From NCBI GenBank assembly GCA_043819795.1, contig JBDREN010000009.1, forward strand, positions 1 through 14,193: a stretch of DNA of 14,193 bases. Reading direction: 5' to 3'. The notes under the pieces are model-generated. The model was not told where the DNA came from. It was given only the letters and a program-made list of their open reading frames with translations, and did no database searches. The position numbers and the translations under genes were made by a program. This stretch comes from Elusimicrobiota bacterium (lineage in GTDB: Bacteria > Elusimicrobiota > Elusimicrobia > UBA1565). This document shows, piece by piece, positions 705 through 13,927 of the stretch (the stretch's first letter is position 1; every line of letters begins with the position of its first letter).

Positions 705-1157
705 TTAATCCGGGGCCACGTAGTCGGAGTGCCGCTGCTGGAAGTACTGCAGGGCGAGCTTAGCGATCGAGTCCGACACATATAGGTCCGTGACGGACGC
801 GGGGCTTTGGGCGCCGCAGGCCGAGCAGGACCACGCCTCGCTGCCAGTGGCGGCCTTGAGGGGCAGCGCGCACTTCTTGCAGTGCGGCAGCCCCGATTTG
901 ACGCCCAGGACCTTCTTCTCCGCCGGCGAGGACGTGACGACCGGGAACCAGAGCACGTCGTAGCGCTCGATGCGGAACTCCCGCTCCACGGGCTTGGCGC
1001 GCAGGGCCGCGAGCTCGGCTTCGAGCGCGGCCGCGCGCCCTTGAGCGGGCTCCGTCACCGCCTTCTGGCCGCGGACCTTCGCGAAGAGCGACAACGCCGC
1101 GACGGCCAGGACCGCCGACACGGCCGCGAGGATCAAGACGATAGGGTCGAAAGCCAT
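705..1157 (-). CDS. Hypothetical membrane-anchored protein with a C-terminal CxxC...CxxC zinc ribbon (150 aa)
   Basis: N-terminal hydrophobic helix IVLILAAVSAVLAVAALSLF followed by basic residues, a short coiled segment, then PHCKKC-x13-CSACG. Third codon positions are strongly G/C. The RBS AAGGAG (1164-1169, minus strand) is 6 nt from the ATG at 1157 and abuts the ATG at 1163, so 1157 is the preferred start. Confidence 0.85.
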   Translation of the reverse strand: MAFDPIVLILAAVSAVLAVAALSLFAKVRGQKAVTEPAQGRAAALEAELAALRAKPVEREFRIERYDVLWFPVVTSSPAEKKVLGVKSGLPHCKKCALPLKAATGSEAWSCSACGAQSPASVTDLYVSDSIAKLALQYFQQRHSDYVAPD

Positions 1158-1290
1158 GGGCATCTCCTTTTCACCTCCGGTGCGTACACCGCTGGACCGG
1201 CCGCGCGCCCCGGGATCGAGTCCGTTGCGGGCATCGCCCGCCTATCCCTTAATCAAAAGCGGCCCGCGCCGACTCCCGCTTGGCCCTATC

Positions 1291-1419: not shown

Positions 1420-1447
1420 GTAACATCCATGTTACTTGCGGTAACAC
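1420..1447. promoter_or_regulatory. Palindromic transcription-factor operator with a third half-site
   Basis: Perfect inverted repeat GTAACAT-CC-ATGTTAC at 1420-1435, plus another GTAACA at 1441-1446, 21 nt after the first. It lies just upstream of the -35 at 1457. Confidence 0.55.
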
Positions 1448-1456
1448 GCTTGTGAA

Positions 1457-1485
1457 TCGACAAAAAGCCCAACGGGGGCTATAAC
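1457..1485 (+). promoter_or_regulatory. Sigma70-type promoter for the riboswitch / giant-protein transcript
   Basis: TCGACA (1457-1462), 17-nt spacer, TATAAC (1480-1485): 5/6 match at both hexamers with ideal spacing. The predicted TSS (~1491-1493) falls just before the riboswitch P1 strand. Confidence 0.7.
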
Positions 1486-1494
1486 AAAGTGGGG

Positions 1495-1606
1495 GCGGGA
1501 ACGGCACCCTCCGGCGCAAGCCGGAGCTCGCGAAGCCAAGGGACGATCGGGTTCTACCGCACCATCGAAAACTTCGGACGATCGTCGGCCAGGCTACCGA
1601 ATCCGC
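1495..1606 (+). ncRNA. c-di-GMP-I (GEMM-I) family riboswitch aptamer, G20/G47/C92 (GGC) pocket variant
   Basis: P1 GCGGG(1495-99)/TCCGC(1602-06); GGCA at 1503-06; P2 CTCCGGC-GCAA(GNRA)-GCCGGAG at 1509-1526; junction CGCGAAGCC at 1529-37 (canonical CGCAAAGCC); AGCC(1534-37)/GGCT(1592-95); P3 GACGATCG(1542-49)/CGATCGTC(1579-86); 3' end GCCAGGCTACCGAA. It lies in the 5' UTR of a surface-protein gene, a typical context for the family. Confidence 0.85.
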
Positions 1607-1638
1607 GTAACAGTCAGACGTCAGGACCGGGTTGGGGG

Positions 1639-1662
1639 GCTGAGTCGTTTCGACGGCTCGGC
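1639..1662 (+). promoter_or_regulatory. UUCG-tetraloop hairpin in the riboswitch expression platform
   Basis: GCTGAGTCGT-TTCG-ACGGCTCGGC forms a 10-bp stem with two G-U pairs, so it is favoured on the + strand RNA. No following U-tract. Confidence 0.55.
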
Positions 1663-1679
1663 ATCGGTCACGGACGATC

Positions 1680-4600
1680 GTGCGCGGAATCGAAACGAAA
1701 GCAGGGATCAAGGGCGTACCTTTCTACCGGCTGCTGGTGACCGCGATCGCGGCGGCGCTGCCGGCGCTGCCCTGTGCCGCGGCGCCGGCGCCGGATTTTT
1801 TCACGGTCTCGGTACAGAAGACGGAGATCCGGTGGGGCTGGGAGTACGACGATCCCGCCGCGGTCGGATTCAGGATTTTCGGGGCTTCCTCACCGGAAGG
1901 CCCTTTCTCCTTGATCGCCGGCGCCGAGATCCTCGGCCCCCACGCGACCACCTACACCGAGACGGGCCTGACGCCGGGGTCGGAATATTTCCGGTACATA
2001 GCGGCCGTGAGCGGCGGCGGGCTGATGCGCGGCTCGATCGGTCTCCAGGTCCAGACCCCTGGACCGGGCCAGGGTTCCGAGAAGGTGTGGAGCGGGCGCG
2101 GGCGGAGCGGCAACGCTTCCGAGGGCGCCAACTGGCTGGGCGGTATGGTGCCCTCCGATCAGGAAGCCGTCCGGTTCGACGCGACCAATTCCACAAAATC
2201 CTGCCGTTGGGACCTGGATCGGTCGATCCTGTCGTCGCTCGCCATCAAGCCGGGCTACGGGGCGGCCGTGACGCTCGCGATACCGGACCTCACGATAGAG
2301 CGGGGCCTGCTCCTGGAAAGCGGGGTCTTGTCGTTTAACCGCGCGCATGTGACGGTGGGCGGCGGCTGGAGGCAGACGGCGGGGACGTTCATGGCGGGCC
2401 AGAGCACGGTGACGCTGGACACGTCGATCGTGAGCGAGCCCCTGGATGTCACCGCCGCGAGCCCCTTCCACCATCTGGTGATCGGGGCGGGGGAGCGGTG
2501 GGCCGTCGAGAGCGAGGTGAACTTCCTTTCGCCGCTGATCGTGACGGGGAACCTGACGAACAGAGCGAGCCGGGCCGGGAGGTTCTCGGGGGGGCCCGCC
2601 GTGATCCTGGGCGACATGAGGCTCTACGGTGAAGGGGCGGATTGGGCGACGGGGAGGTACCCGCTGACGGTCAAGGGGACGCTGCGGCTGCGCGGGGACG
2701 ATCTCGAGGTCAGCAGCACCCTGCGGCTGGGGACGGGAGTGCACATCGAAGCGGGGGGCGGGGAGTTCGTGCTCACCAACGGGGCGGTGATCACGAGCTT
2801 AGCCCCCGGCCAGAGGTTCTATTCGTTCATCGTGGAGGAGGGGGGATACCTGCGGCTGCTGCACGGCTCGATCCTGTCGCTGGACAGCGGGGGGATCCAA
2901 GTGCGCGGACCCATGTACTGGTTCTCCCACATAGCGAACATCACGTTCGATATGGTGGAGCCGGGCGCGACGGCGCTGAACTTCCTGTATGAGACGTGGT
3001 CGGAACAGCGCGTTTTCGACAACCTGACGTTCGCGGACCCCGGGATCGGGACGAACATCGCGGCGCCGAGATGGAAGGGCGGGGCCCAGATCATCGTCAT
3101 CGGGTTCGACGGCGTCCGGGGAGGGCCCTCCTTCGAGAACGACCCCCATGACTCGATCACGTGGGTGGGAGGCACGCGGCGGGTGTGGGCGGCGGAGACT
3201 CCCGGCCGGGCGTCCGACGGCGGCAACTGGAGCCCGGCGGGGACTCTGCAGAACGATGACGAGGTCGTCTTCGACGGCTCGGGCGGCGGCGATTGCGACT
3301 GGGACGTGGAAGGGATCAGCCTCTCGGCCATCGCGCTGGAGCCGGATTTCACGGGCACGGTGAGCCTGGCGGTGTCGGAGATGACGGTGCTCGAGAGCCT
3401 GACCCTCGCGGGAGGCCGGCTGTCGTTCAACGACGCGCATGTGACGCTGGCCGGCGATTGGACGCAGACGGGCGGGGTTTTCGAGGCGGGCCGGAGCACG
3501 GTGACGATGGATACGGCGCTTTTGGGCGAAGACCTGAGCGTCATGGCCCATGACCCCTTCCATCACCTGGTGATCGGCGCCGGTGGGCAATGGATCGATG
3601 AGCGGGCGGTGACCTTCCTCTCGCCGCTGACGGTGTCCGGGGACCTGACGGGAGGGGGGGGCAGGGCCGCGAACTTGTTGGGCGGGCCCACCGTGATCCA
3701 TGGCGACATGAGGCTGCAGGGCGGCGGGGCGGTTTGGCGGACGGGACCCCATTCGCTGGAGATCGGGGGGACGCTGAGGCTGGAGGGGAGCGACATCGAG
3801 GTGGACAGCACGCTGCGGTTGGGGACGGGCGTGCATCTCGAGGGTAGCGGGGAGTTCGCGCTCATCAACGGGTCGGTGATCACGAGCATAGCACCCGGAG
3901 AGAGCTTCTATTCGTTCATCGTCGACGAAGGGGCCTCCCTGCGCCTGGCGCGCGGTGCGATCCTTTCGCTGGACTCCGGCGGGATCCAGATGCGCGGGCC
4001 GATGCACCCCCTGTCCTATATCGGGAACATCACGTTCGATTCTCTGCAGCCCGGGGCGACGGCGCTGAACTTCCTGTACGAGGCGACGTCGGAGCAGCGG
4101 GCCTTCGACAACCTGACGTTCGCGGACCCGGGGATCGGGACGAACGTCGCGGCGCCGGGATGGTCGGAGTCGGCGCAGGTCATCGTTTCCGGTTTCGACG
4201 GGGCCCGGGGCGGGCCGGCCTTCGAGCTCGATCCCCACGACGTCATCGTCTGGATCGCCGATGACGGGAAGATCGCGGCTCTGCCCGAGGCTCTCGAGGA
4301 CCTGGCCGCCGCGGCTCTGGACGCTTCCTCCATCCGATGGACGTGGCAGGCCGCCGGCTCGGCGCTGAGCTACGACGTGTTCTCCGCGATCGACGCCTCC
4401 GCGCCGCTGGCCACGGTCACGGGCGCCAGCTTCACTCGGACGGGGCTCTCGACCAACACGGCCTTCGGCATCATGGTCCGGGGCGTCAACGAATGGGGAG
4501 CCGGCCGCATCGGCGCGCTCACGACCGCCTACACCTTGGCCGAGCGGCCGGACGGCCTGGAGATCACGGCCGCATCGTCGGACACGATCTCGCTGAGCTG

Positions 4601-7600
4601 GTCGCGCGCCTCCAATCCCGAGGGGACGGTCTTCGAGCTGCGGCGATCCGTCGGCGAGGGCTTCGTGCCCGTCCTGAGGGGCACGGCCACGTCCGTGCGG
4701 CAGACGGGGCTGCGACCCCTGACGGAGTACGCATTCATGGTCGGCGCGAGGAACGGCGATTCCGTCCCCACGGCGTTCACCGCCGAGGCGTCCACGATGA
4801 CGCTGCCTCCCGCGCCCGGCGAGCCGGCGGTCTCCGGCGGGACGGCGCTGGGGGTCTCTTCGATCAGCTGGACGTGGTCGCGGCTGCCGCACGCTTCCAG
4901 ATACAATGTGTTCCGGGCGTCCGACACCTCGGAGGCGCTGGCCACCACGGACTCGACGGCCTTCGTGTGGACGGGCCTCTCGGTGAACGCCGACTACGGC
5001 ATCGTCGTGCAGGGGCTCAACGAGATCGGCGGAGGCCCCCTGTCCGGGCCTTCGACCGCTCACACCCTGGCCGAGCGGCCGGACAGCCTTGAGGTCACGG
5101 CCGCATCGTCCGCGACGATTTCGCTGGCCTGGCCGGCCACCGCCAATCCCGCGGGGACGCTGTTCGAGCTGCAGCGGTCCGTCGGCGAGGGTTTCGTGAC
5201 CGTCCTATCGGGCACCGCCACGGCCGCCGAGCAGACGGGCCTGCGCCCCGGGACCCCCTACATCTTCAGGCTTCGCGCCCGGAACGGCGATTCGAGATGG
5301 ACCGAGTACGGCGCCGTGGCGTCGACCACGACCCTGCAGCTCCCGCCCGACGGATCGGCGGTCCCCGTGGGCGCCGCTCTGGGGGAGTCCTCGATCAGCT
5401 GGACCTGGGCGCCGCTGCCGCGCGTCTCGAGGTACGACGTGTTCCGGGCGTCGGACACTTCGGAGCCGCTGGTCTCCACGGTCTCGACGGGATTCGCGTG
5501 GGGGGGGCTGGCCCCCAACACGCCGTACGGCGTCGTCGTCCGGGGGATCAACGCGACCGGCGAGGGACCTCTGTCGAAAGCCTCGACCGCCTACACATTG
5601 GCCGAGCGGCCGGACGGCCTGGAGATCACGGCCGTATCGTCCGCGGCGGTCTCGCTCGCCTGGTCGGCCGCCGGCAATCCCCCGGGCACGGTCTTCGAGC
5701 TGCAGCGGTCCGTCGGCGAGGGTTTCGTGACGGTGCTCTCGGGCACCGCCGCCGCCGCCGCGCAAACGGGCCTGCGCCCGGCGGCCGCCTACGCCTTCAG
5801 GGTCCGCGCGCTCAACGGCGACCAGGTGCCGACCGGGTTCGGCGCCGAGGCCTCCGCCACGACCCTGCCGCCGTTGCCGGACCGCGTGGGGACTCCCGTC
5901 GCCGTCGCGCTCGGGGTCTCATCCATCGCCTGGACCTGGGGCGCTCTGCCGCACGCGGAGCGCTACGAAGTCTATTGCGCGTCGAGCCCGTCCGCGCCGC
6001 TCGGATCCGTCGCGGCCGCGAGCCACACCTTGACCGGGCTCTCGGTGAACGCCGCCTACGGGATCGTCGTCAAAGGGCTCAACGAGACAGGAGAAGGGCT
6101 GTTGTCGGAGCCGTCCACCGCCCATACCCTCGCCGCGCGGCCCGCCGGCCTCGTCATAACCGCCGTATCGTCCACCTCCATCGCGCTGGGTTGGTCGGCC
6201 GACGGCAACCCCGAAGGGACCGTTTACGAGGTCTGGAGGGATACGGGGGCGGGCTTCGCCGTGGCGGCCGCCACGACCCGGACCGATTTCGCCGTCCCCG
6301 GCCTCGCCCCCACGGGCGTCGTGGCTCACAAGGTCCGCGCCTTCAACCACGACTCGGTCCCGACCTCCTTCAGCGCGACGGTCTCGACGATGACCCTGCC
6401 GCCTCTGCCCGGCCGGCCGCAGACTCCCTCCGGCGTCGCCCTGGGCGTCTCCGCGATCGCCTGGACGTGGGCGGCCCTGCCTCATGCGGCCGGCTACGAC
6501 ATCTACTCGGCCTCGAGCCTCTCCACGCTTCTCGCTTCGGTCCGCTCGGCGAGCTTCGCGCGGGCGGGCCTCTCGGTGAACGCCGCCTACGGCATCGTCG
6601 TGCAAGCGGTCAACGCCTCCGGAAGAGGGCCGCTGTCCGGGCCGGCGACGGTCCACACCCAGGCGGCGCGGCCGGACGGACTCCGGATCACCGCCGTTTC
6701 GTCCACCTCGGTCACGCTCAGCTGGTCCGCCGGAGCGAATCCCGCTCCGACGCTCTACGAGGTCCACAGGGATACGGGGACGGGCTTCCTCGCGATCGGC
6801 TCCACGACGCTGCCGCGCTTCGCCGACGCCGGGCTCGCGCCGGAGAGCGCTTCCGCCTACCAAGTCCGGGCCTTGAACGGCGATTCCAAACCGACCGCCT
6901 TCAGCTCCGCGGTCTCGACGACCACCTTGCCGCCCGCGCTCGGCGCGCCTCGGACTCCCGCCGGCGACGCCCTGGGCGTCTCCTCGATCGCCTGGACGTG
7001 GGCGGCCCTGCCGCACGCCGCCGCCTACCGCGTCTACGCCGCCTCGGACACGTCGGAGCCCCTCGCCTCGGTGAGCTCCGCGGGCTTCACCTGGACCGGC
7101 CTCCCGGCCAACGCGGGCCGCGCCATCCTCGTCCAAGGGGTCAACGAGGCCGGGGCGGGGCCTTTGTCGGGAACCGCTTCGGCGCACACCCTGGCCGCGC
7201 GGCCGGCCGCCCTCGCCATCGCGGCCGTGTCGCCCGCCGGCCTCTCGCTCGTCTGGTCGGCCAACGGGAACCCGGAGGGGACGCTCTACGAGGTCCACCG
7301 GGACGCGGGGGCCGGCTTCGCGGCGGTCGCCGCTACGACCCTGACGGGCTTCCTCGACGCGGAGGCCGCGCCCGCGGGCGCCGTCCGCTACAGGGTCCGC
7401 GCGCTCAACGGCGCCTCGATACCGACCGGCTTCACCGCCACGTTATCGACCTCGGACCTGCCGCCCCTGCCCGGCCGCCCCGGGCCCCCCGCGGGCGCGG
7501 TCCTGAGCACCACCTCGGTCCTGTGGACCTGGTCCGCCACGGCGAGCGCCGACGGCTACAGGATCTTCCTCGCCGGCAGCACCGGGACCTGGCTCGGCTC

Positions 7601-9443
7601 CTCGGCCGTGGGCGGCTTCACGCAGAACGGCCTTTCCCCCAACACGCCTTCCAGCGTCGTCGTCGAGGGATTCAACACCCTGGGCACCGGCCCTCGCTCC
7701 GAGCCGAGCTCCGTCGTTTACACGCTCGCCAATCCGCCGGCCGGCACCGCCGCCTCCAGCGTCCGGGTGACGAGCGCGAAGATCGACTGGGGGATCAACG
7801 GCAATCCGGCCGCCACGACGGCCCAGCTGGAGCGCTCCCCGGACGGCGCCTCCTTCACGAGCGTATTCACCGGGTTCGCCACGGCGTTCACCGATTCCGG
7901 GCTGTCGGGCTGCTCCACCTATTATTACAGGGCGCGCAACGTGAACGCCGCCGGGGTGGCCACGGCCTACGACGCGACGATCCTCCTCAAGACCGAGGCC
8001 GCCGTCCCCCTGGGGGCCGGGAACCTGGAGGCGACGCCGCTCGAAGGCAACCGCGTCGCGCTCTCCTGGGCGCCGTCACCGTCGGAGGGCGTCATCGAGT
8101 ACCGGCTGTACTTCGATGCCGGCACCGGCGTCATCGACTACGACACCCCGCTGGCCGTCCTGTCCTCGACCGAGACCGCGTATACCACCGATGTGCTCGT
8201 GTCGAGCCCGGCCTATCGGTTCGGGCTGCGCGCCTATAACAGCTGCGGGGTGGAGGAGGGGAACACGAGCGTCCTGGCCTCGGCTCCGGCTCTCAACAGC
8301 CTGACCGGGGTGCAGGCCGCCATCAAAGAGCCCAAGAGCGGGAAGCGCCTCAAGGGCAACAGCGTCACCATCGTCGCGGAGCTGTTTCTGGGCGACGAGG
8401 CTCAGACGAGGCGGATCCTGTTCCAATACAAGCCTTCCGCCGACACGGCCTGGTCGGACATCACCGCGGCCGACGTGAGCCATCCGAACCCCGATCCTTC
8501 CGGTCCCTTCTTCGTGCACTGGAACGCGGACGCCGTGACGCCCGGCGCCTACGACCTGAGGGCCGTGGCGAGCGACATCCAGGGAGAGCTCGACGCATGT
8601 CCGCCGAGCATCACCGTGATCGTCGATCCGGTGGATTTCGATATCAGCGAGACGAGCCTGGGCGGAGGCAAGGTCAGAAAGGAGCAGAAGGTCAACAACG
8701 CCGTCACCAACGAGGTCAAGGCCGCCGACGAGGGAACGAGCCAGGTGACCACCTTGAGCATCCCGGCCGGAGCCTTGAACGCTTCCACAGTCACCGTGTC
8801 GGTGGTCAACAACCCGACGGACGCCCCTGCGCCCCCCGAAGATGTCGAGGCAGTGAGCGTCGTGACCGAGATCACCTTGTCCAACGCCCAGCGCGGCCTG
8901 TCCAACGGGAAGAGCGCCGCGGTCACGCTGAGCTTCCCGGACCAGGACGGGGACGGGATCGTTGACGGGACGACGGTCCGCGCGGAGCAGCTCCGGATGT
9001 TCTCCTCGGAAAGCCCCGCGGGACCCTGGAAGAGGGACCTCTCCTGCAGCGTGGACCTCTCGAAGAGGACGGTCACCGGCATGACGAGGCATTTCAGCTT
9101 CTTCGCGCTGTTCGCCCCGGCGGCGTCCTCTTTGAGCGCGGTGCGGGCCTATCCCGTGCCCTTCATGCCCAACAGCGGCGACCCGGACGACGGGGCGCCC
9201 TACAGCCCGGGCGACCCCGACTCGGGGATCATCTTCGACAATCTGCCGGCTTCCGTGGAGATCAAGGTCTACACGCTGACGGGCCAGCTTGTGGCGGGCT
9301 TCGGGTCGGGTAGCTCCGGCAACAAGCTGCGGTGGGACGTGAGAAATGACGGCGGCGAGGACGTGGCTTCCGGGCTCTACTTCGCCGTGATATCGGGCTC
9401 CGGCGAGTCGCCGGTGGTCAAGAAGCTTCTGATCGTAAGATGA
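1680..9443 (+). CDS. Giant secreted surface protein / putative adhesin (2587 aa) with fibronectin type III repeats and a C-terminal FlgD-Ig / T9SS-type sorting domain
   Basis: Sec-type signal peptide (RLLVTAIAAALPALPCAAA); one FN3 (YTETGLTPGSEYFRYIAAV); two ~365-aa beta-rich repeats; seven 177-aa double-FN3 units; one more FN3; an Ig-like domain (HWNADAVTPGAYDLRAVASD); a DQDGDGIVD Ca-binding-type loop (8940-8966) in a domain ending RHFSFFALF; C-terminal VRAYPVPF...IKVYTLTGQLV...WDVRNDGGEDVASGLYF...KKLLIVR (9141-9440). The GTG start at 1680 has a weak RBS and is uncertain. Confidence 0.93.
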   Translation: MRGIETKAGIKGVPFYRLLVTAIAAALPALPCAAAPAPDFFTVSVQKTEIRWGWEYDDPAAVGFRIFGASSPEGPFSLIAGAEILGPHATTYTETGLTPGSEYFRYIAAVSGGGLMRGSIGLQVQTPGPGQGSEKVWSGRGRSGNASEGANWLGGMVPSDQEAVRFDATNSTKSCRWDLDRSILSSLAIKPGYGAAVTLAIPDLTIERGLLLESGVLSFNRAHVTVGGGWRQTAGTFMAGQSTVTLDTSIVSEPLDVTAASPFHHLVIGAGERWAVESEVNFLSPLIVTGNLTNRASRAGRFSGGPAVILGDMRLYGEGADWATGRYPLTVKGTLRLRGDDLEVSSTLRLGTGVHIEAGGGEFVLTNGAVITSLAPGQRFYSFIVEEGGYLRLLHGSILSLDSGGIQVRGPMYWFSHIANITFDMVEPGATALNFLYETWSEQRVFDNLTFADPGIGTNIAAPRWKGGAQIIVIGFDGVRGGPSFENDPHDSITWVGGTRRVWAAETPGRASDGGNWSPAGTLQNDDEVVFDGSGGGDCDWDVEGISLSAIALEPDFTGTVSLAVSEMTVLESLTLAGGRLSFNDAHVTLAGDWTQTGGVFEAGRSTVTMDTALLGEDLSVMAHDPFHHLVIGAGGQWIDERAVTFLSPLTVSGDLTGGGGRAANLLGGPTVIHGDMRLQGGGAVWRTGPHSLEIGGTLRLEGSDIEVDSTLRLGTGVHLEGSGEFALINGSVITSIAPGESFYSFIVDEGASLRLARGAILSLDSGGIQMRGPMHPLSYIGNITFDSLQPGATALNFLYEATSEQRAFDNLTFADPGIGTNVAAPGWSESAQVIVSGFDGARGGPAFELDPHDVIVWIADDGKIAALPEALEDLAAAALDASSIRWTWQAAGSALSYDVFSAIDASAPLATVTGASFTRTGLSTNTAFGIMVRGVNEWGAGRIGALTTAYTLAERPDGLEITAASSDTISLSWSRASNPEGTVFELRRSVGEGFVPVLRGTATSVRQTGLRPLTEYAFMVGARNGDSVPTAFTAEASTMTLPPAPGEPAVSGGTALGVSSISWTWSRLPHASRYNVFRASDTSEALATTDSTAFVWTGLSVNADYGIVVQGLNEIGGGPLSGPSTAHTLAERPDSLEVTAASSATISLAWPATANPAGTLFELQRSVGEGFVTVLSGTATAAEQTGLRPGTPYIFRLRARNGDSRWTEYGAVASTTTLQLPPDGSAVPVGAALGESSISWTWAPLPRVSRYDVFRASDTSEPLVSTVSTGFAWGGLAPNTPYGVVVRGINATGEGPLSKASTAYTLAERPDGLEITAVSSAAVSLAWSAAGNPPGTVFELQRSVGEGFVTVLSGTAAAAAQTGLRPAAAYAFRVRALNGDQVPTGFGAEASATTLPPLPDRVGTPVAVALGVSSIAWTWGALPHAERYEVYCASSPSAPLGSVAAASHTLTGLSVNAAYGIVVKGLNETGEGLLSEPSTAHTLAARPAGLVITAVSSTSIALGWSADGNPEGTVYEVWRDTGAGFAVAAATTRTDFAVPGLAPTGVVAHKVRAFNHDSVPTSFSATVSTMTLPPLPGRPQTPSGVALGVSAIAWTWAALPHAAGYDIYSASSLSTLLASVRSASFARAGLSVNAAYGIVVQAVNASGRGPLSGPATVHTQAARPDGLRITAVSSTSVTLSWSAGANPAPTLYEVHRDTGTGFLAIGSTTLPRFADAGLAPESASAYQVRALNGDSKPTAFSSAVSTTTLPPALGAPRTPAGDALGVSSIAWTWAALPHAAAYRVYAASDTSEPLASVSSAGFTWTGLPANAGRAILVQGVNEAGAGPLSGTASAHTLAARPAALAIAAVSPAGLSLVWSANGNPEGTLYEVHRDAGAGFAAVAATTLTGFLDAEAAPAGAVRYRVRALNGASIPTGFTATLSTSDLPPLPGRPGPPAGAVLSTTSVLWTWSATASADGYRIFLAGSTGTWLGSSAVGGFTQNGLSPNTPSSVVVEGFNTLGTGPRSEPSSVVYTLANPPAGTAASSVRVTSAKIDWGINGNPAATTAQLERSPDGASFTSVFTGFATAFTDSGLSGCSTYYYRARNVNAAGVATAYDATILLKTEAAVPLGAGNLEATPLEGNRVALSWAPSPSEGVIEYRLYFDAGTGVIDYDTPLAVLSSTETAYTTDVLVSSPAYRFGLRAYNSCGVEEGNTSVLASAPALNSLTGVQAAIKEPKSGKRLKGNSVTIVAELFLGDEAQTRRILFQYKPSADTAWSDITAADVSHPNPDPSGPFFVHWNADAVTPGAYDLRAVASDIQGELDACPPSITVIVDPVDFDISETSLGGGKVRKEQKVNNAVTNEVKAADEGTSQVTTLSIPAGALNASTVTVSVVNNPTDAPAPPEDVEAVSVVTEITLSNAQRGLSNGKSAAVTLSFPDQDGDGIVDGTTVRAEQLRMFSSESPAGPWKRDLSCSVDLSKRTVTGMTRHFSFFALFAPAASSLSAVRAYPVPFMPNSGDPDDGAPYSPGDPDSGIIFDNLPASVEIKVYTLTGQLVAGFGSGSSGNKLRWDVRNDGGEDVASGLYFAVISGSGESPVVKKLLIVR
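2082..4260 (+). repeat. Intragenic tandem duplication, 2 x ~1.09 kb (beta-helix / passenger-like module)
   Basis: Copy 1 starts KVWSG..NAS..NW (Trp codon 2088) and copy 2 RVWAA..RAS..NW (Trp codon 3186). Shared blocks include PFHHLVIGAG, STLRLGTGVH, FYSFIV, ILSLDSGGIQ, PGATALNFLYE and FDNLTFADPGIGTN. Confidence 0.9.
4290..8000 (+). repeat. Seven tandem 531-nt (177-aa) double-FN3 units
   Basis: The first Trp codon of the S(S/A)I.WTW motif recurs at 4338, 4869, 5400, 5931, 6462, 6993 and 7524, exactly 531 nt apart each time. Confidence 0.95.
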
Positions 9444-10393
9444 GAATCCGGAAGATCATCCTTCTCGGCATTCTCGCCCTGGGCGGGCTCAGGGCGGCGC
9501 CGGCGCGCGCCGGCTCGGCCGGGGCCGATCCCCTCAATTTCCTCTTCCTGGACGCGAACGCCCGGGCGGTCGCGATGGGAGGAGCCTACACGGCTCTGGC
9601 GGCCGACGCGAACGCCCTGCTCTACAACCCGGCGGGCCTCGGGAGGATCGGACGGCACGAGGCCACCTTCATGCACAACGAGCACTTCGAAGGCGTCAGC
9701 CAGGAGTACATGGGGGTCGCGTTGCGGCAGGGATGGGGCCTGAACCTCAACTACGTGGACTCGGGGAAAGTGCCCAGGACCACGATCTCCAACAAGGACG
9801 GGACCGGCCTGGGGAGCACGGGGCTGAGGGACCTGGCGGTCGGGGCGGGCTACGGCCGGGCCGTGCGCGAGGACCTGGCGCTCGGCGCCGGGATCAAGTA
9901 CGTCAGCGAGGAGATCGCCGGAGTGAAGGCCGATGGTCTCGCGCTGGATTTCGGCGCGCTGTACTCGCCGCCGGGCCTAGAGCGCCTCACCCTCGGGCTC
10001 GCCGTGCAGAACATCGGACGCAAGGTGAAGTTCCAGAGCGAGGAGGAGAACCTGCCGCTCAACGCCCGGGCCGGGGCGGCGTACGCGTTCACGATGGGGG
10101 GACAGAAGAGCCTGGTGGCCGTCGACGTCACCAAGGAGCGGAGCGAGGACGTCCTCCTCAGCGCGGGGGCCGAGACCGTCGTCGCGGGCATGATGCCCGT
10201 GAGGCTGGGATACAGCGCCCGCAACGACGCCGGCCCGGGACTGAGCATCGGGTTGGGATGGGCCCTCAAGGACCTGCAGATGGACTACGCGTTCGTGCCT
10301 TTCGGGGATCTGGGTTCGGCCCACCGCCTCAGCGCCACCTTGAGGTGGGGCGAGGGCGGCGAGCCGGCCCGCGGCACGGGAGGTTCCCGGTAG
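9440..10393 (+). CDS. PorV/PorQ-family (FadL-like) outer-membrane beta-barrel protein
   Basis: Signal peptide MRIRKIILLGILALGGLRAAPARA; hallmark FL..NARAVAMGGAYTALA.DANALLYNPAGL; alternating beta-strands; C-terminal DYAFVPFGDLGSAHRLSATLRW. The start overlaps the upstream stop (ATGA, 9440-9443). Confidence 0.9.
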   Translation: MRIRKIILLGILALGGLRAAPARAGSAGADPLNFLFLDANARAVAMGGAYTALAADANALLYNPAGLGRIGRHEATFMHNEHFEGVSQEYMGVALRQGWGLNLNYVDSGKVPRTTISNKDGTGLGSTGLRDLAVGAGYGRAVREDLALGAGIKYVSEEIAGVKADGLALDFGALYSPPGLERLTLGLAVQNIGRKVKFQSEEENLPLNARAGAAYAFTMGGQKSLVAVDVTKERSEDVLLSAGAETVVAGMMPVRLGYSARNDAGPGLSIGLGWALKDLQMDYAFVPFGDLGSAHRLSATLRWGEGGEPARGTGGSR

Positions 10394-10646
10394 ACGGATG
10401 GGACGCCATACACGGGAATCCCAAGGAGGAGACGGGATGACGACGGCACCGCCGGTGATCCGAGTCTTGCCCGGCGCCCGGGCGCAGGCAGGCGACGCCG
10501 TCTCGGGGGGATGCCGCCATCGGACGCCGGTCCGCCCGTCCGTGCCGGTCCCGGGCGGTGAGGAAGACAATCCGCGAGGCGCCCGCGCCTCCTTCGGTCC
10601 GGCGTATCCGCGGCGACGCCACGCCGCGCGCAAGTGGGAGGTCCGC

Positions 10647-11363
10647 ATGGCAAGCGTGATGCAGTTGGCCGAGCACTGGATCCTGCATGGAGACACGACG
10701 AATTCCACCCAGTTCTTCTGGCTATTGACGAAGGCTATCGAGCGGGATCCCGCCCTCTTCTCCCGCGCCACCTCCGCGTATTGCACGCATATGGAGGATC
10801 TCTTCAGGACCGCCGAGCAGCTCGCGCAGACGGACCTCCCGTTCTCGAGGATCGCCAACACCATGGGCGACGGCTTCTTCCTGCTGGGCCGGCCCGGACG
10901 CGGCAGCCGGCACATCACCGACGAGGCCTCGGACCTCCTGATCGCCTCGAGGAAGGTCAAGGAGACGGGCGACCGGATCCTCGCGTCTTTGAGGGACGAA
11001 TGCGTGGGATGGTATCCGTCGGTCACCGACGAGGCGTTCCCGTCCCTCGAGCTTAAGATCGTGCTCCATCAAGGCCATCTCGCCAGCGCCCGGCTCTCAG
11101 GCCACTTCGTCGGGGACACCGTCAATTACTGCAGCCGCGTCGCGGCCTCCGCGTTCGACGACGGGCGGACGGACCGCATCGTCTTCACCGACAGCCTCTT
11201 CGAGGTGCTGCCGGAGGACATCAAAGAGAGGACCCGGCGCTACGGCCGGCCGGTCCCGGTCAAGAACTACCCGAAGAAGGACGGCCCTCATTGCCCGCTG
11301 CGGCCCCGGGAGGTCTACGGCGTCCCGCTGTCCGACGACGATTTCTGGACGGCGCTGGGCTGA
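10647..11363 (+). CDS. Stand-alone class III nucleotidyl (adenylate/guanylate) cyclase-domain protein, atypical
   Basis: ILHGDTTNST (first metal Asp, 10692), NTMGDGFFL (second Asp, 10869), LKIVLHQG (cf. RIGIHxG), HFVGDTVNYCSRV (Asn 11124, Arg 11136). RBS GGAGG is 5 nt before ATG 10647. An in-frame alternative ATG at 10437 also has an RBS (AAGGAGG). Confidence 0.8.
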   Translation: MASVMQLAEHWILHGDTTNSTQFFWLLTKAIERDPALFSRATSAYCTHMEDLFRTAEQLAQTDLPFSRIANTMGDGFFLLGRPGRGSRHITDEASDLLIASRKVKETGDRILASLRDECVGWYPSVTDEAFPSLELKIVLHQGHLASARLSGHFVGDTVNYCSRVAASAFDDGRTDRIVFTDSLFEVLPEDIKERTRRYGRPVPVKNYPKKDGPHCPLRPREVYGVPLSDDDFWTALG

Positions 11364-11531
11364 TATCCCGGCCGGCCGGATTCCTCCCACCGCCGGAACC
11401 TCACGTACTCGTCGAACACGGGAAAGGCCGCCCAACAGACCGAAGAGAGCCATAAGGCGCTTGAGGACCAGCTGCAGCAGACAGACAACTGATGCCTGAC
11501 GACGGGATGCCTTGCCTTGGGTCAAGCCCGT

Positions 11532-13601
11532 TCAGGGCTTAATCTTGACGCCAAGAGATTCGACTGCCTTCGCGTATTCGGGCTTGAGCCTCAGGGCCTC
11601 TGTGAAGGCGGTCCTGGCCGTCCGTAGGTCGCCATTCCGGAAGGCAGCCTCTCCTAAACTCAGGTGATACAACGCACTGTCGGGAGAAAGACGGGCCGCT
11701 GTGCGGAGCAGCGGCACGGCCTTTTCAAGTTGACCCACCCTCATCAGGAGCTCCCCGACACCGTGGATGGCTCGGGCATTCTCCGGCTTGATTCGCAGGA
11801 CTTCCTTGTAGTATTTGAGCGCATCTTCGTAGCGCCCCATCTGCATGCACGCAAACGCCAGGTTCAGGAGGGTGTTGAGATGGTGAGGATAGGCAGACAA
11901 GACGGCTTCATACATCGGAACGGCCTTTTCAGGATCCCCCATTCTCAGATGAGCGCTTCCAACCGGAAACAGCACTTTCTTGCGAAAAGGGTTGTACCGG
12001 TAGGCCGCCAGCCCCGCCACCGCGACCATCCTCCACTGCTGTGTCGCACTGAAGCCGGCGATGCGGGAAAAGCAGTATTCCGCAAGGATCCTCCGGGACT
12101 GCCAGGTGAGCAAACCGGCAGTCAGGCAGAAAACCATTACTGAAACCACGGCCGCCTTCCATCCCGAAAGCCGGAGCCACACAGACCCCTGCAAGGGGGG
12201 GGACAGCGCCCCTAAGATTCCCAGATAGGACGCAAAGACCAACGGAGGCACGGCACGATTGAATGGGAAACTGACCATCGCGTTGGCGAGCAGGCCCGCC
12301 GTGCTCACCCCGATCGCCAATAGGCACGACTGCGCCCATGGATCCGATTCCTTGCGGAAGATACGCCAGAAAGAGGCAAAGACGCTCCAGCCCAGCCAGA
12401 GGAGCAACACGAGACCCACAGCGCCCGTTTCAGCCAGCACTTGGAGATAGTCGTTATGAACATGGCTGAGGAATTTCTTTTCGCCGTACCCCCAGTTCAC
12501 GACTCCTCTTCGGCTGTAGTCCGGATAATGGACCTTGGCGTTCCCGAGCCCAACGCCGCGAAGAGGGGAATCCCGCGCCATCTCCAGGATGTTTCTCCAG
12601 ATGGCGAATCTGAGACGAATGGAACCAGTCGCGATATGCTCTTGGGGCGAATCGTGGAAGGGCCTCCGCGCAGGCCCTTCAGATAGGGCTGCCCACGTAG
12701 CGGAAAGCCGACGGACGGTGCCGTCTCTCTCAGGATTGACGTTCGATCCTCTAGTCCCCACAAGAGCCGCGAAGAGCACCGCTCCAGCGATCCCTGCGAC
12801 GATCTTCGCTCGACTCAGTCGCGCGCCCTTGGGGAAGGGGCGGGGACGGGCCCAAAGAAGAGCCCCCGCAACGATGGCTTGGACACCGACAACCAGCACC
12901 GCCGCACGCGAACTGGTCCAAAACAGATAGAGGCATGCGGTCCAAAAAGCCAACGAATACATCCAGAAAGACCTGCGGTGGTCGCTGGTGAGCCAAGCGA
13001 AGGCCGCTAAGGGCAACGTCAGCGCCACGAAATGGACAGCGATATTCCGGTGGCCAAAGGTGGACGCGGGCGGCAGACTCTGAGGGATCCGATTCACCCA
13101 CGGCGCGTCCAAATACTGCAGGATTCCCAAAACCGAAACAGCAAAGCCGGACCATAGGAAGGCCCGCAAGACGAACCGGATATCGCGGACGCCGCGCAGC
13201 GTGCGCGCGGCATAGAAACAGACTGCGGCGCACGCGGCCCAGTGAAGCCAGGTCTCCAAGCCCTCGTAGCGGTTATGCGCCCAAACGATGGAAAGGCCGC
13301 ACCAGCCGAGGAACGCCAGAAGCGGAAGGGAAAATCCTGTTTTGAGGCTCCTGAGCCCGCCGCTCCGAATAGCCCTCCAGCACGCCACACACACGAGGGC
13401 CGCGGCCAAGGACTGGATGAAAGCGGATTGGGGGAGGTAGCAGGCATCCTCCAAACCACCCCAAAAGAGCCTGTAGTCTATGACGAAAGGCGCCAGGCCG
13501 ACTGAAACCGCGAAGGCTACGACTTCGCGGTCTCGCGGCGCGTCCTTCGGTGTTTCCACTGGCGCGTATTTTCTCAACAAAAGTTCTATGCTGGCGCTCA
13601 C
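11532..13601 (-). CDS. O-antigen ligase / O-oligosaccharyltransferase-like (Wzy_C) polytopic membrane protein with C-terminal TPR repeats
   Basis: About 12 hydrophobic segments; motifs STFGHRN, TSSRAA, R.AIW...LEM..DSPL.GVGLGN and HVHNDYLQVLAETGAVG; C-terminal TPRs (e.g. NLAFACMQMGRYEDALKYYKEVLRIKPEN). Start is uncertain: the GTG at 13601 was chosen, the ORF is open to 13661. Confidence 0.9.
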   Translation of the reverse strand: MSASIELLLRKYAPVETPKDAPRDREVVAFAVSVGLAPFVIDYRLFWGGLEDACYLPQSAFIQSLAAALVCVACWRAIRSGGLRSLKTGFSLPLLAFLGWCGLSIVWAHNRYEGLETWLHWAACAAVCFYAARTLRGVRDIRFVLRAFLWSGFAVSVLGILQYLDAPWVNRIPQSLPPASTFGHRNIAVHFVALTLPLAAFAWLTSDHRRSFWMYSLAFWTACLYLFWTSSRAAVLVVGVQAIVAGALLWARPRPFPKGARLSRAKIVAGIAGAVLFAALVGTRGSNVNPERDGTVRRLSATWAALSEGPARRPFHDSPQEHIATGSIRLRFAIWRNILEMARDSPLRGVGLGNAKVHYPDYSRRGVVNWGYGEKKFLSHVHNDYLQVLAETGAVGLVLLLWLGWSVFASFWRIFRKESDPWAQSCLLAIGVSTAGLLANAMVSFPFNRAVPPLVFASYLGILGALSPPLQGSVWLRLSGWKAAVVSVMVFCLTAGLLTWQSRRILAEYCFSRIAGFSATQQWRMVAVAGLAAYRYNPFRKKVLFPVGSAHLRMGDPEKAVPMYEAVLSAYPHHLNTLLNLAFACMQMGRYEDALKYYKEVLRIKPENARAIHGVGELLMRVGQLEKAVPLLRTAARLSPDSALYHLSLGEAAFRNGDLRTARTAFTEALRLKPEYAKAVESLGVKIKP

Positions 13602-13684
13602 GCGCCCAAGGACTGCTATTTTACATAATACGCATCTTTGACGAGCAGGACCTCGGCACATCGCTGTCTATCCGTCGTGCTGAG

Positions 13685-13927
<243 letters not shown>

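Follow-up and report, generated by a model that had tools for sequence, protein, structure and literature searches.

The aptamers of GEMM-I riboswitches use G20 and C92 as pocket residues according to the available portions of two papers (PMC4744006, PMC3764141), and in those of the second, A47 stacks between the guanines of the ligand and A25, G42 and A47 are counted among the highly conserved positions (PMC3764141). Base selection by class III nucleotidyl cyclases follows a rule of two positions, as given in the accessible part of PMC2576301. Excerpts available on individual enzymes describe a basic residue at the second base-selecting position of the cGMP maker PfPucC, a histidine at the same position of a Dictyostelium guanylate cyclase, and other residue sets at these positions in PycC. 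Literature listings on the GGC ligand, on riboswitch/T9SS modules of Elusimicrobiota and on orphan cyclases showed no entry on the locus or on the cyclase family reported here.

The window analysed was an entire contig (C9) of 14,193 bases from a genome of 5.0 Mb that is 90% complete. Three co-oriented genes lie on its plus strand, at 1680-9443, 9440-10393 and 10647-11363, the first two (a giant surface-protein gene and porV) overlapping by 4 nt and the third, encoding a cyclase, starting after a gap of 253 nt. Neither a U-tailed terminator nor, by sequence scan, a consensus promoter was found in this gap, and plus-strand terminator calls in the span fell only within the giant gene. The three co-oriented genes with no U-tailed terminator between them are therefore as originally described, and co-transcription of porV and the cyclase gene by putative read-through may occur. 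The original prediction had further proposed that the riboswitch, the surface-protein genes and the cyclase form one second-messenger circuit. Its parts were confirmed as observed, and riboswitch control of the surface-protein/PorV pair was well supported, if ordinary for the lineage; the link of the cyclase to a common circuit was not supported. On balance we favour, with somewhat better than even confidence, a giant gene/PorV module preceded by a divergent GEMM-I aptamer that likely reads c-di-GMP, behind which an unrelated lone cyclase was likely inserted.

A sigma-70-type promoter was predicted by sequence at 1457-1485 (plus strand), with the -35 box TCGACA at 1457-1462, a 17-nt spacer and the -10 box TATAAC at 1480-1485. 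A strict consensus scan did not call it, and an alignment of homologous promoters placed TTGAC at the matching -35 position. Abutting the -35 box is an operator array (1420-1456, plus strand) composed of the palindrome GTAACA-N4-TGTTAC and TGT(A/T)AC-like repeats at ~11-bp spacing, which we take to resemble that of OmpR/PhoB-type sites. The operator motif was present four times in the genome (never in a reversed-genome control) and in 6 of another 100 genomes of the order (loci L105-L110); on this distribution we regard the promoter as real, with activation by a regulator being likely. All six operators in these relatives precede a CsgG/FlgO-like gene, five of them by way of a GEMM riboswitch. 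Since the layout of promoter and upstream operator also recurs at three other places in the genome (C106:550, C100:37261 and C223:1690), the promoter first proposed stands. The array is likely a transcription-factor site, as predicted from its sequence; its conservation is a new observation and defines, in an uncultured phylum, a small regulon situated ahead of GEMM riboswitches. We also noted that the operator-linked copies in genomes G005 and G088 have G20 and that the copy in G003 lacks an aptamer, and that aptamers at C106:629-727 in the window's own genome and at L107-L109 have A at position 20, a cGAMP-type pocket by the G20A rule. In many motor-operon leaders (L017-L044), the region separating the promoter from the GEMM aptamer includes a structured element that is conserved and lies ~100 nt before the aptamer.

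Downstream of the promoter lies a divergent GEMM-I aptamer of the GGC type (1494-1602, plus strand), with G20 at 1503, G47 at 1532 and C92 at 1597. The GEMM-I architecture is present, comprising the P1-P2-P3 three-way junction, a GNRA loop (GCAA) and the C44-G83 pair, and the canonical G20/A47/C92 pocket is broken at position 47 only, as the earlier reading of a GEMM-I fold with G at this position had it. P3 is extended and contains one A.A mismatch, and the P2 loop is altered (A24C, A25C and G42C, with U43), resulting in ACC/CUC where AAA/GAC is usual; the earlier reading did not include the loop changes or the mismatch. Against the Rfam family RF03167 (c-di-GMP-I-GGC) the aptamer scored 39 bits (E 2.7e-6), short of the gathering threshold of 59; the long P3 insertion lowers the score. 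A search of the whole genome with RF01051 at E<=0.01 gave three matches, none of them on the window contig. The consensus of the RF03167 model itself has G at position 47, and the window aptamer agrees with it at G20, G47 and C92. The unusual pocket pointed out earlier is thus a catalogued Rfam variant and not new. The RF03167 label alone says little, because A47 aptamers also score best with this model.

GEMM-I matches were found in 85 of the 101 genomes of the order, and position 47 was A in 29 of 29 readable loci among the 30 best (one was unread). The genome's other three GEMMs all have A47, with A47 copies scoring 63 and 62 bits. The closest, on contig C101, likewise precedes a giant gene and has a nearly identical P2 and 3' strand, with a compensatory double change of C-G to U-A. 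The combination of C24 with U43 was also seen in a 76-bit aptamer of genome G088. A G47 pattern matched three of the 101 genomes of the order, and only the match in the window was a riboswitch. Three intact G47 aptamers (L078:12466-12638, L079:5256-5387 and L080:1849-1965), picked by eye from a loose G47 pattern that matches at chance level and then confirmed, were found in genomes G192, G226 and G361, within one family of another order. They have canonical P2 loops, an enlarged L2 and long P3 insertions, and one precedes a PorV-like gene and a giant gene. A tight G47 pattern matched 4 of 401 genomes of the phylum, a figure that is no census, as the pattern misses the window and genome G361 and two of the four matches are not riboswitches.

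The minimum free energy of the aptamer was no better than that of shuffled sequences (z -1.1). Folding placed a structured leader hairpin at 1603-1690 (plus strand), which covers the likely start region, has no U-tail and is a candidate translational expression platform. Control would be translational, as no terminator lies 3' of the aptamer. Accessibility of the start region was the same in free and aptamer-constrained equilibrium folds, and no switch was seen. All three of the highly conserved positions A25, G42 and A47 differ in the window aptamer, which counts against our main reading; with these departures and no switch on folding, the function of the aptamer is a prediction from sequence, and it likely still reads c-di-GMP.

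The genome has nine GGDEF matches, four of them full domains with an intact motif, so that the riboswitch needs no neighbouring enzyme. It also encodes 10 ordinary class III cyclases and 24 cNMP-binding domains, the latter being possible in-trans receptors for a cyclic mononucleotide. An intact GGDEF domain at C11:6190-6639 (minus strand) has Asn in place of the canonical Asp at the base-reading position and is a candidate source of a second dinucleotide; in Hypr GGDEF enzymes this position is Ser, as stated in the available part of PMC6456294.

The giant gene (1680-9443, plus strand) encodes an exported surface protein of 2587 aa with a signal peptide recognised by eye, two N-terminal repeats of ~340 aa that are 58% identical, FN3 repeats (10 Pfam fn3 stretches) and a C-terminal T9SS-like tail. 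The tail scored 17 bits with TIGR04183 (cut-off 23) and matched the PorZ tail at E 2.8e-8. No orthologue of its N-terminal 817 aa was found, the search giving domain matches only, in 26 of 100 genomes. The following gene (9440-10393, plus strand) encodes an outer-membrane barrel of the PorV/PorQ family (NF033709, 160.6 bits, cut-off 90). There were 22 PorV-like matches in the genome, and 14 of 21 evaluated paralogues sit after an ORF of >1000 aa; tails of the preceding ORFs looked similar by eye, with a regular expression catching 6 of 21. The gene 3' of porV differed each time across the evaluated paralogues. In genomes G007 and G013 an A47 riboswitch is followed by a FecR gene, a giant gene and PorV, without a cyclase. 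A module of riboswitch, giant gene and PorV is ordinary for the lineage. The closest paralogous giant-PorV pair (C151:13199-14979) is followed by two genes that appear AbiEi/AbiEii-like by eye, again passengers after porV.

The third gene (10647-11363, plus strand) encodes a stand-alone protein of 238 aa with the class III nucleotidyl cyclase fold, in which D16, D75, N160 and R164 are intact and the pocket residues are N71 and H153. A GGAGG lies 6-10 nt upstream of the start at 10647, where homologues also begin; starts at 10398 or 10437 were rejected, since the resulting extension has non-coding base composition and is missing from homologues. The predicted model (pLDDT 90) matched class III cyclases in Foldseek at E 3e-8, the VIA comparison with CyaB gave Z 17.5 and an rmsd of 3.0 over 189 residues, and Atlas neighbours agreed with the class III fold. 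The window protein was assigned to no family in Pfam, NCBIfam or PADLOC, and a PDB sequence search with the single protein gave nothing relevant. Pfam matches were obtained for 7 of 18 family members at E<=1; a Glyoxalase match of the window protein (E 0.009) was ruled out by the fold. In a family alignment of 26 proteins of at least 190 aa (shorter ones were dropped), D75, N160 and N71 were found in 26/26, D16 in 25/26 (one gap) and R164 in 24/26. Position 153 was Arg in 22/26, His in the window protein alone and another residue in three. In an alignment with a rhodopsin guanylate cyclase, N71 and H153 fall opposite E497 and C566, so the pocket fits neither the K/D,T pair of adenylate cyclases nor the E/C pair of guanylate cyclases; with the fold confirmed, the earlier description of a class III cyclase matching neither type held. 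Rv1900c, an adenylate cyclase making cAMP, has Asn at the first position, where Lys is usual. An Asn/Arg pocket offers hydrogen-bond donors fitting a keto base, making cGMP or cUMP likelier than cAMP as a product. The window cyclase, too, likely makes cGMP or cUMP rather than cAMP, a prediction that is weaker for this protein because it has His in place of the family Arg.

The cyclase family is rare and patchily spread, with 21 representatives among the 1.84 billion searched. A homologue was found in none of 60 relatives and none of 400 other genomes of the phylum; a pattern scan found it in one other genome, none of whose 150 relatives carries it. Thirteen pattern matches on viral contigs gave no confirmed member, no relative was found on plasmids, and none of 7997 candidates of 512-2000 aa was a fused cyclase, which is weak evidence. 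The three genomes with the other G47 aptamers had no cyclase. Cyclase loci elsewhere have BrxL upstream (L011), HsdM downstream (L013), a pPIWI-associated nuclease (L012), a tRNA-Ser upstream (L010) or, with a frameshifted cyclase, a UvrD/GajB-like helicase (L014); no defence gene adjoins the cyclase in the window. PorV, a riboswitch or a Pycsar effector was found in none of six such loci, five of which have <1 kb upstream. The co-occurrence of riboswitch, porV and cyclase that a common circuit had suggested was thus not found among the 60 relatives, the 400 other genomes of the phylum, the A47 operons or the six other cyclase loci. A relative at L009:9965-10834 has a C-terminal tail that is HEPN-like (Pfam E 4e-4, short of the cut-off) and contains an R-x4-H motif; it is either a fusion or a chimera.

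Downstream, an O-antigen ligase/TPR gene (11532-13661, minus strand; Pfam Wzy_C) converges on the cyclase gene and has foreign codon use (codon adaptation in the 1st percentile). The 3' end of a tRNA-Ala(CGC), an attachment-site remnant of 49 bp at 13879-13927 (minus strand), is 100% identical to a tRNA on contig C158 and lies 2.5 kb from the cyclase gene; no whole tRNA is present in the window. What we take, by resemblance, to be a possible recombinase tail lies beyond the cyclase, and Pfam gave no support for it. The foreign-codon gene, the possible recombinase tail and the tRNA-Ala remnant together suggest an integration hot spot. The codon use of the cyclase gene itself is host-like (68th percentile, GC3 0.89), giving no sign of recent foreign origin and counting against a recent arrival. 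Run X2 contained pieces of all three genes at ~90-98% identity, which may mean that the genes stay together in close relatives, although no contig in that run bridges porV and the cyclase gene. Its cyclase was 363/369 identical (98%) and diverged in the last codons, indicating that the 3' neighbour differs there. An open stretch of 42 codons without a start (11364-11492, plus strand) follows the cyclase stop and is a possible gene remnant at a junction. At the other end of the window, a DUF559 gene with flanking repeats (1-621), which has several near-identical copies in the genome, is likely a mobile element sitting at this edge of the contig. The single-copy gene at 708-1163 (minus strand) is divergent and encodes 152 aa, with a membrane anchor at the N terminus and a pair of CxxC motifs; no family match above cut-off was found for it.

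If a riboswitch-controlled surface module with an unrelated cyclase behind it is the right description, an activator would bind the operator array and the promoter would fire. c-di-GMP from the genome's GGDEF enzymes would then occupy the site formed by G20 and C92 and stack on G47, probably with lower affinity than in the A47 copies; in the absence of a following terminator, it would tune how strongly the giant gene is translated. The PorV-family barrel would bind the tail of the giant protein and display it on the surface. A cyclic mononucleotide would be the product of the cyclase, which would work as a homodimer with two metals and, having no adjoining receptor gene, exert its effect in trans. 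Transcripts that read through from the adhesin promoter may supply the cyclase by accident of insertion, and it is likely a passenger and not part of a circuit. The aptamer might instead be a decaying copy that binds no ligand, leaving the operon to operator and promoter alone with the cyclase again a passenger. This is unlikely: the low score (39 bits versus 63 and 62 for A47 copies), five changed junction and loop positions, a G47 that is a singleton among the 101 genomes of the order (the two other pattern matches are not riboswitches) and the lack of a switch on folding argue for it, but P1, P2, P3, the GNRA loop, C44, G83, G20 and C92 are all kept, P2 carries a compensatory change, C24/U43 recurs in the 76-bit G088 aptamer, and another order has three intact aptamers with G47.

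The curation of GGC as a family of its own, and the hints of a second dinucleotide from the A20 aptamer on C106 and the Asn-GGDEF on C11, would fit a G47 aptamer sensing another dinucleotide (3'3'-cGAMP or a pyrimidine-containing one, for example) made elsewhere in the cell and unrelated to the cyclase. We consider this quite improbable, as the base-reading G20 and C92 are of the c-di-GMP type and position 47 stacks. It is very doubtful that the cyclase was co-opted as a third operon gene, with c-di-GMP raising both adhesin display and an unusual cyclic mononucleotide acting through the genome's receptors. Co-orientation, the missing terminator, a strong ribosome-binding site, host-like codons, the 24 cNMP-binding domains and the presence of all three genes in the related population of run X2 are consistent with such a relay; the cyclase, however, co-occurs with a riboswitch or PorV nowhere tested, the slot after porV is variable, and the 253-nt gap contrasts with the 4-nt overlap of the true pair. 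At similarly long odds, and speculatively, the Asn/Arg-pocket cyclases would be an undescribed roaming family making cGMP or cUMP that signals in trans with no partner gene; one copy would have been captured in this lineage as the third gene in a riboswitch-controlled adhesin operon, where it would convert c-di-GMP levels into another messenger that is not cAMP. A direct loop, in which the cyclase makes the riboswitch ligand and closes a feedback, has next to no probability: both parts have non-standard pockets, but the enzyme has the fold and the catalytic residues of a mononucleotide cyclase and the two variants never co-occur elsewhere.

Compared with RF03167 and RF01051 (Vc2), the window aptamer has in common the three-way junction, the GNRA loop, C44/G83, G20 and C92, and it shares G47 with RF03167; it differs from the latter in its score below the cut-off, its P2 loop (ACC/CUC versus AAA/GAC) and its long P3 insertion. 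Together with the three cleaner examples, it provides natural material to test the ligand of the GGC variant. Pycsar and Pucsar systems (PycC, PucC; PMC11224242, bioRxiv 2026.08.12.744502) likewise use class III cyclases that are small, stand alone, have altered pockets and occur in defence settings, but a PycTM, PycTIR or E2-like gene adjoins the cyclase in none of seven loci (the window and L009-L014, some with short flanks). The window cyclase had no PADLOC match, weak PycC matches were obtained for 3 of 18 family members, and its fold resembles ordinary cyclases at least as closely as it does PycC. With the class III catalytic domain (PF00211; CyaB 3R5G, CyaC, Rv1900c) it shares the fold, the two metal-binding Asp and the transition-state Asn and Arg, whereas its identity is 11-20%, it has no Pfam match or sensor domain, and it carries an Asn/His pocket (Asn/Arg in the family). 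Such a compact, catalytically intact family would allow an easy assay for new base-selection rules. The surface-protein pair, with its T9SS-like C-terminal tail and its PorV/PorQ-family barrel, parallels the Bacteroidota T9SS, in which type A cargo is served by a PorV shuttle; here the tail scores below the TIGR04183 cut-off, and one barrel gene, among ~20 paralogues, stands beside each giant gene.
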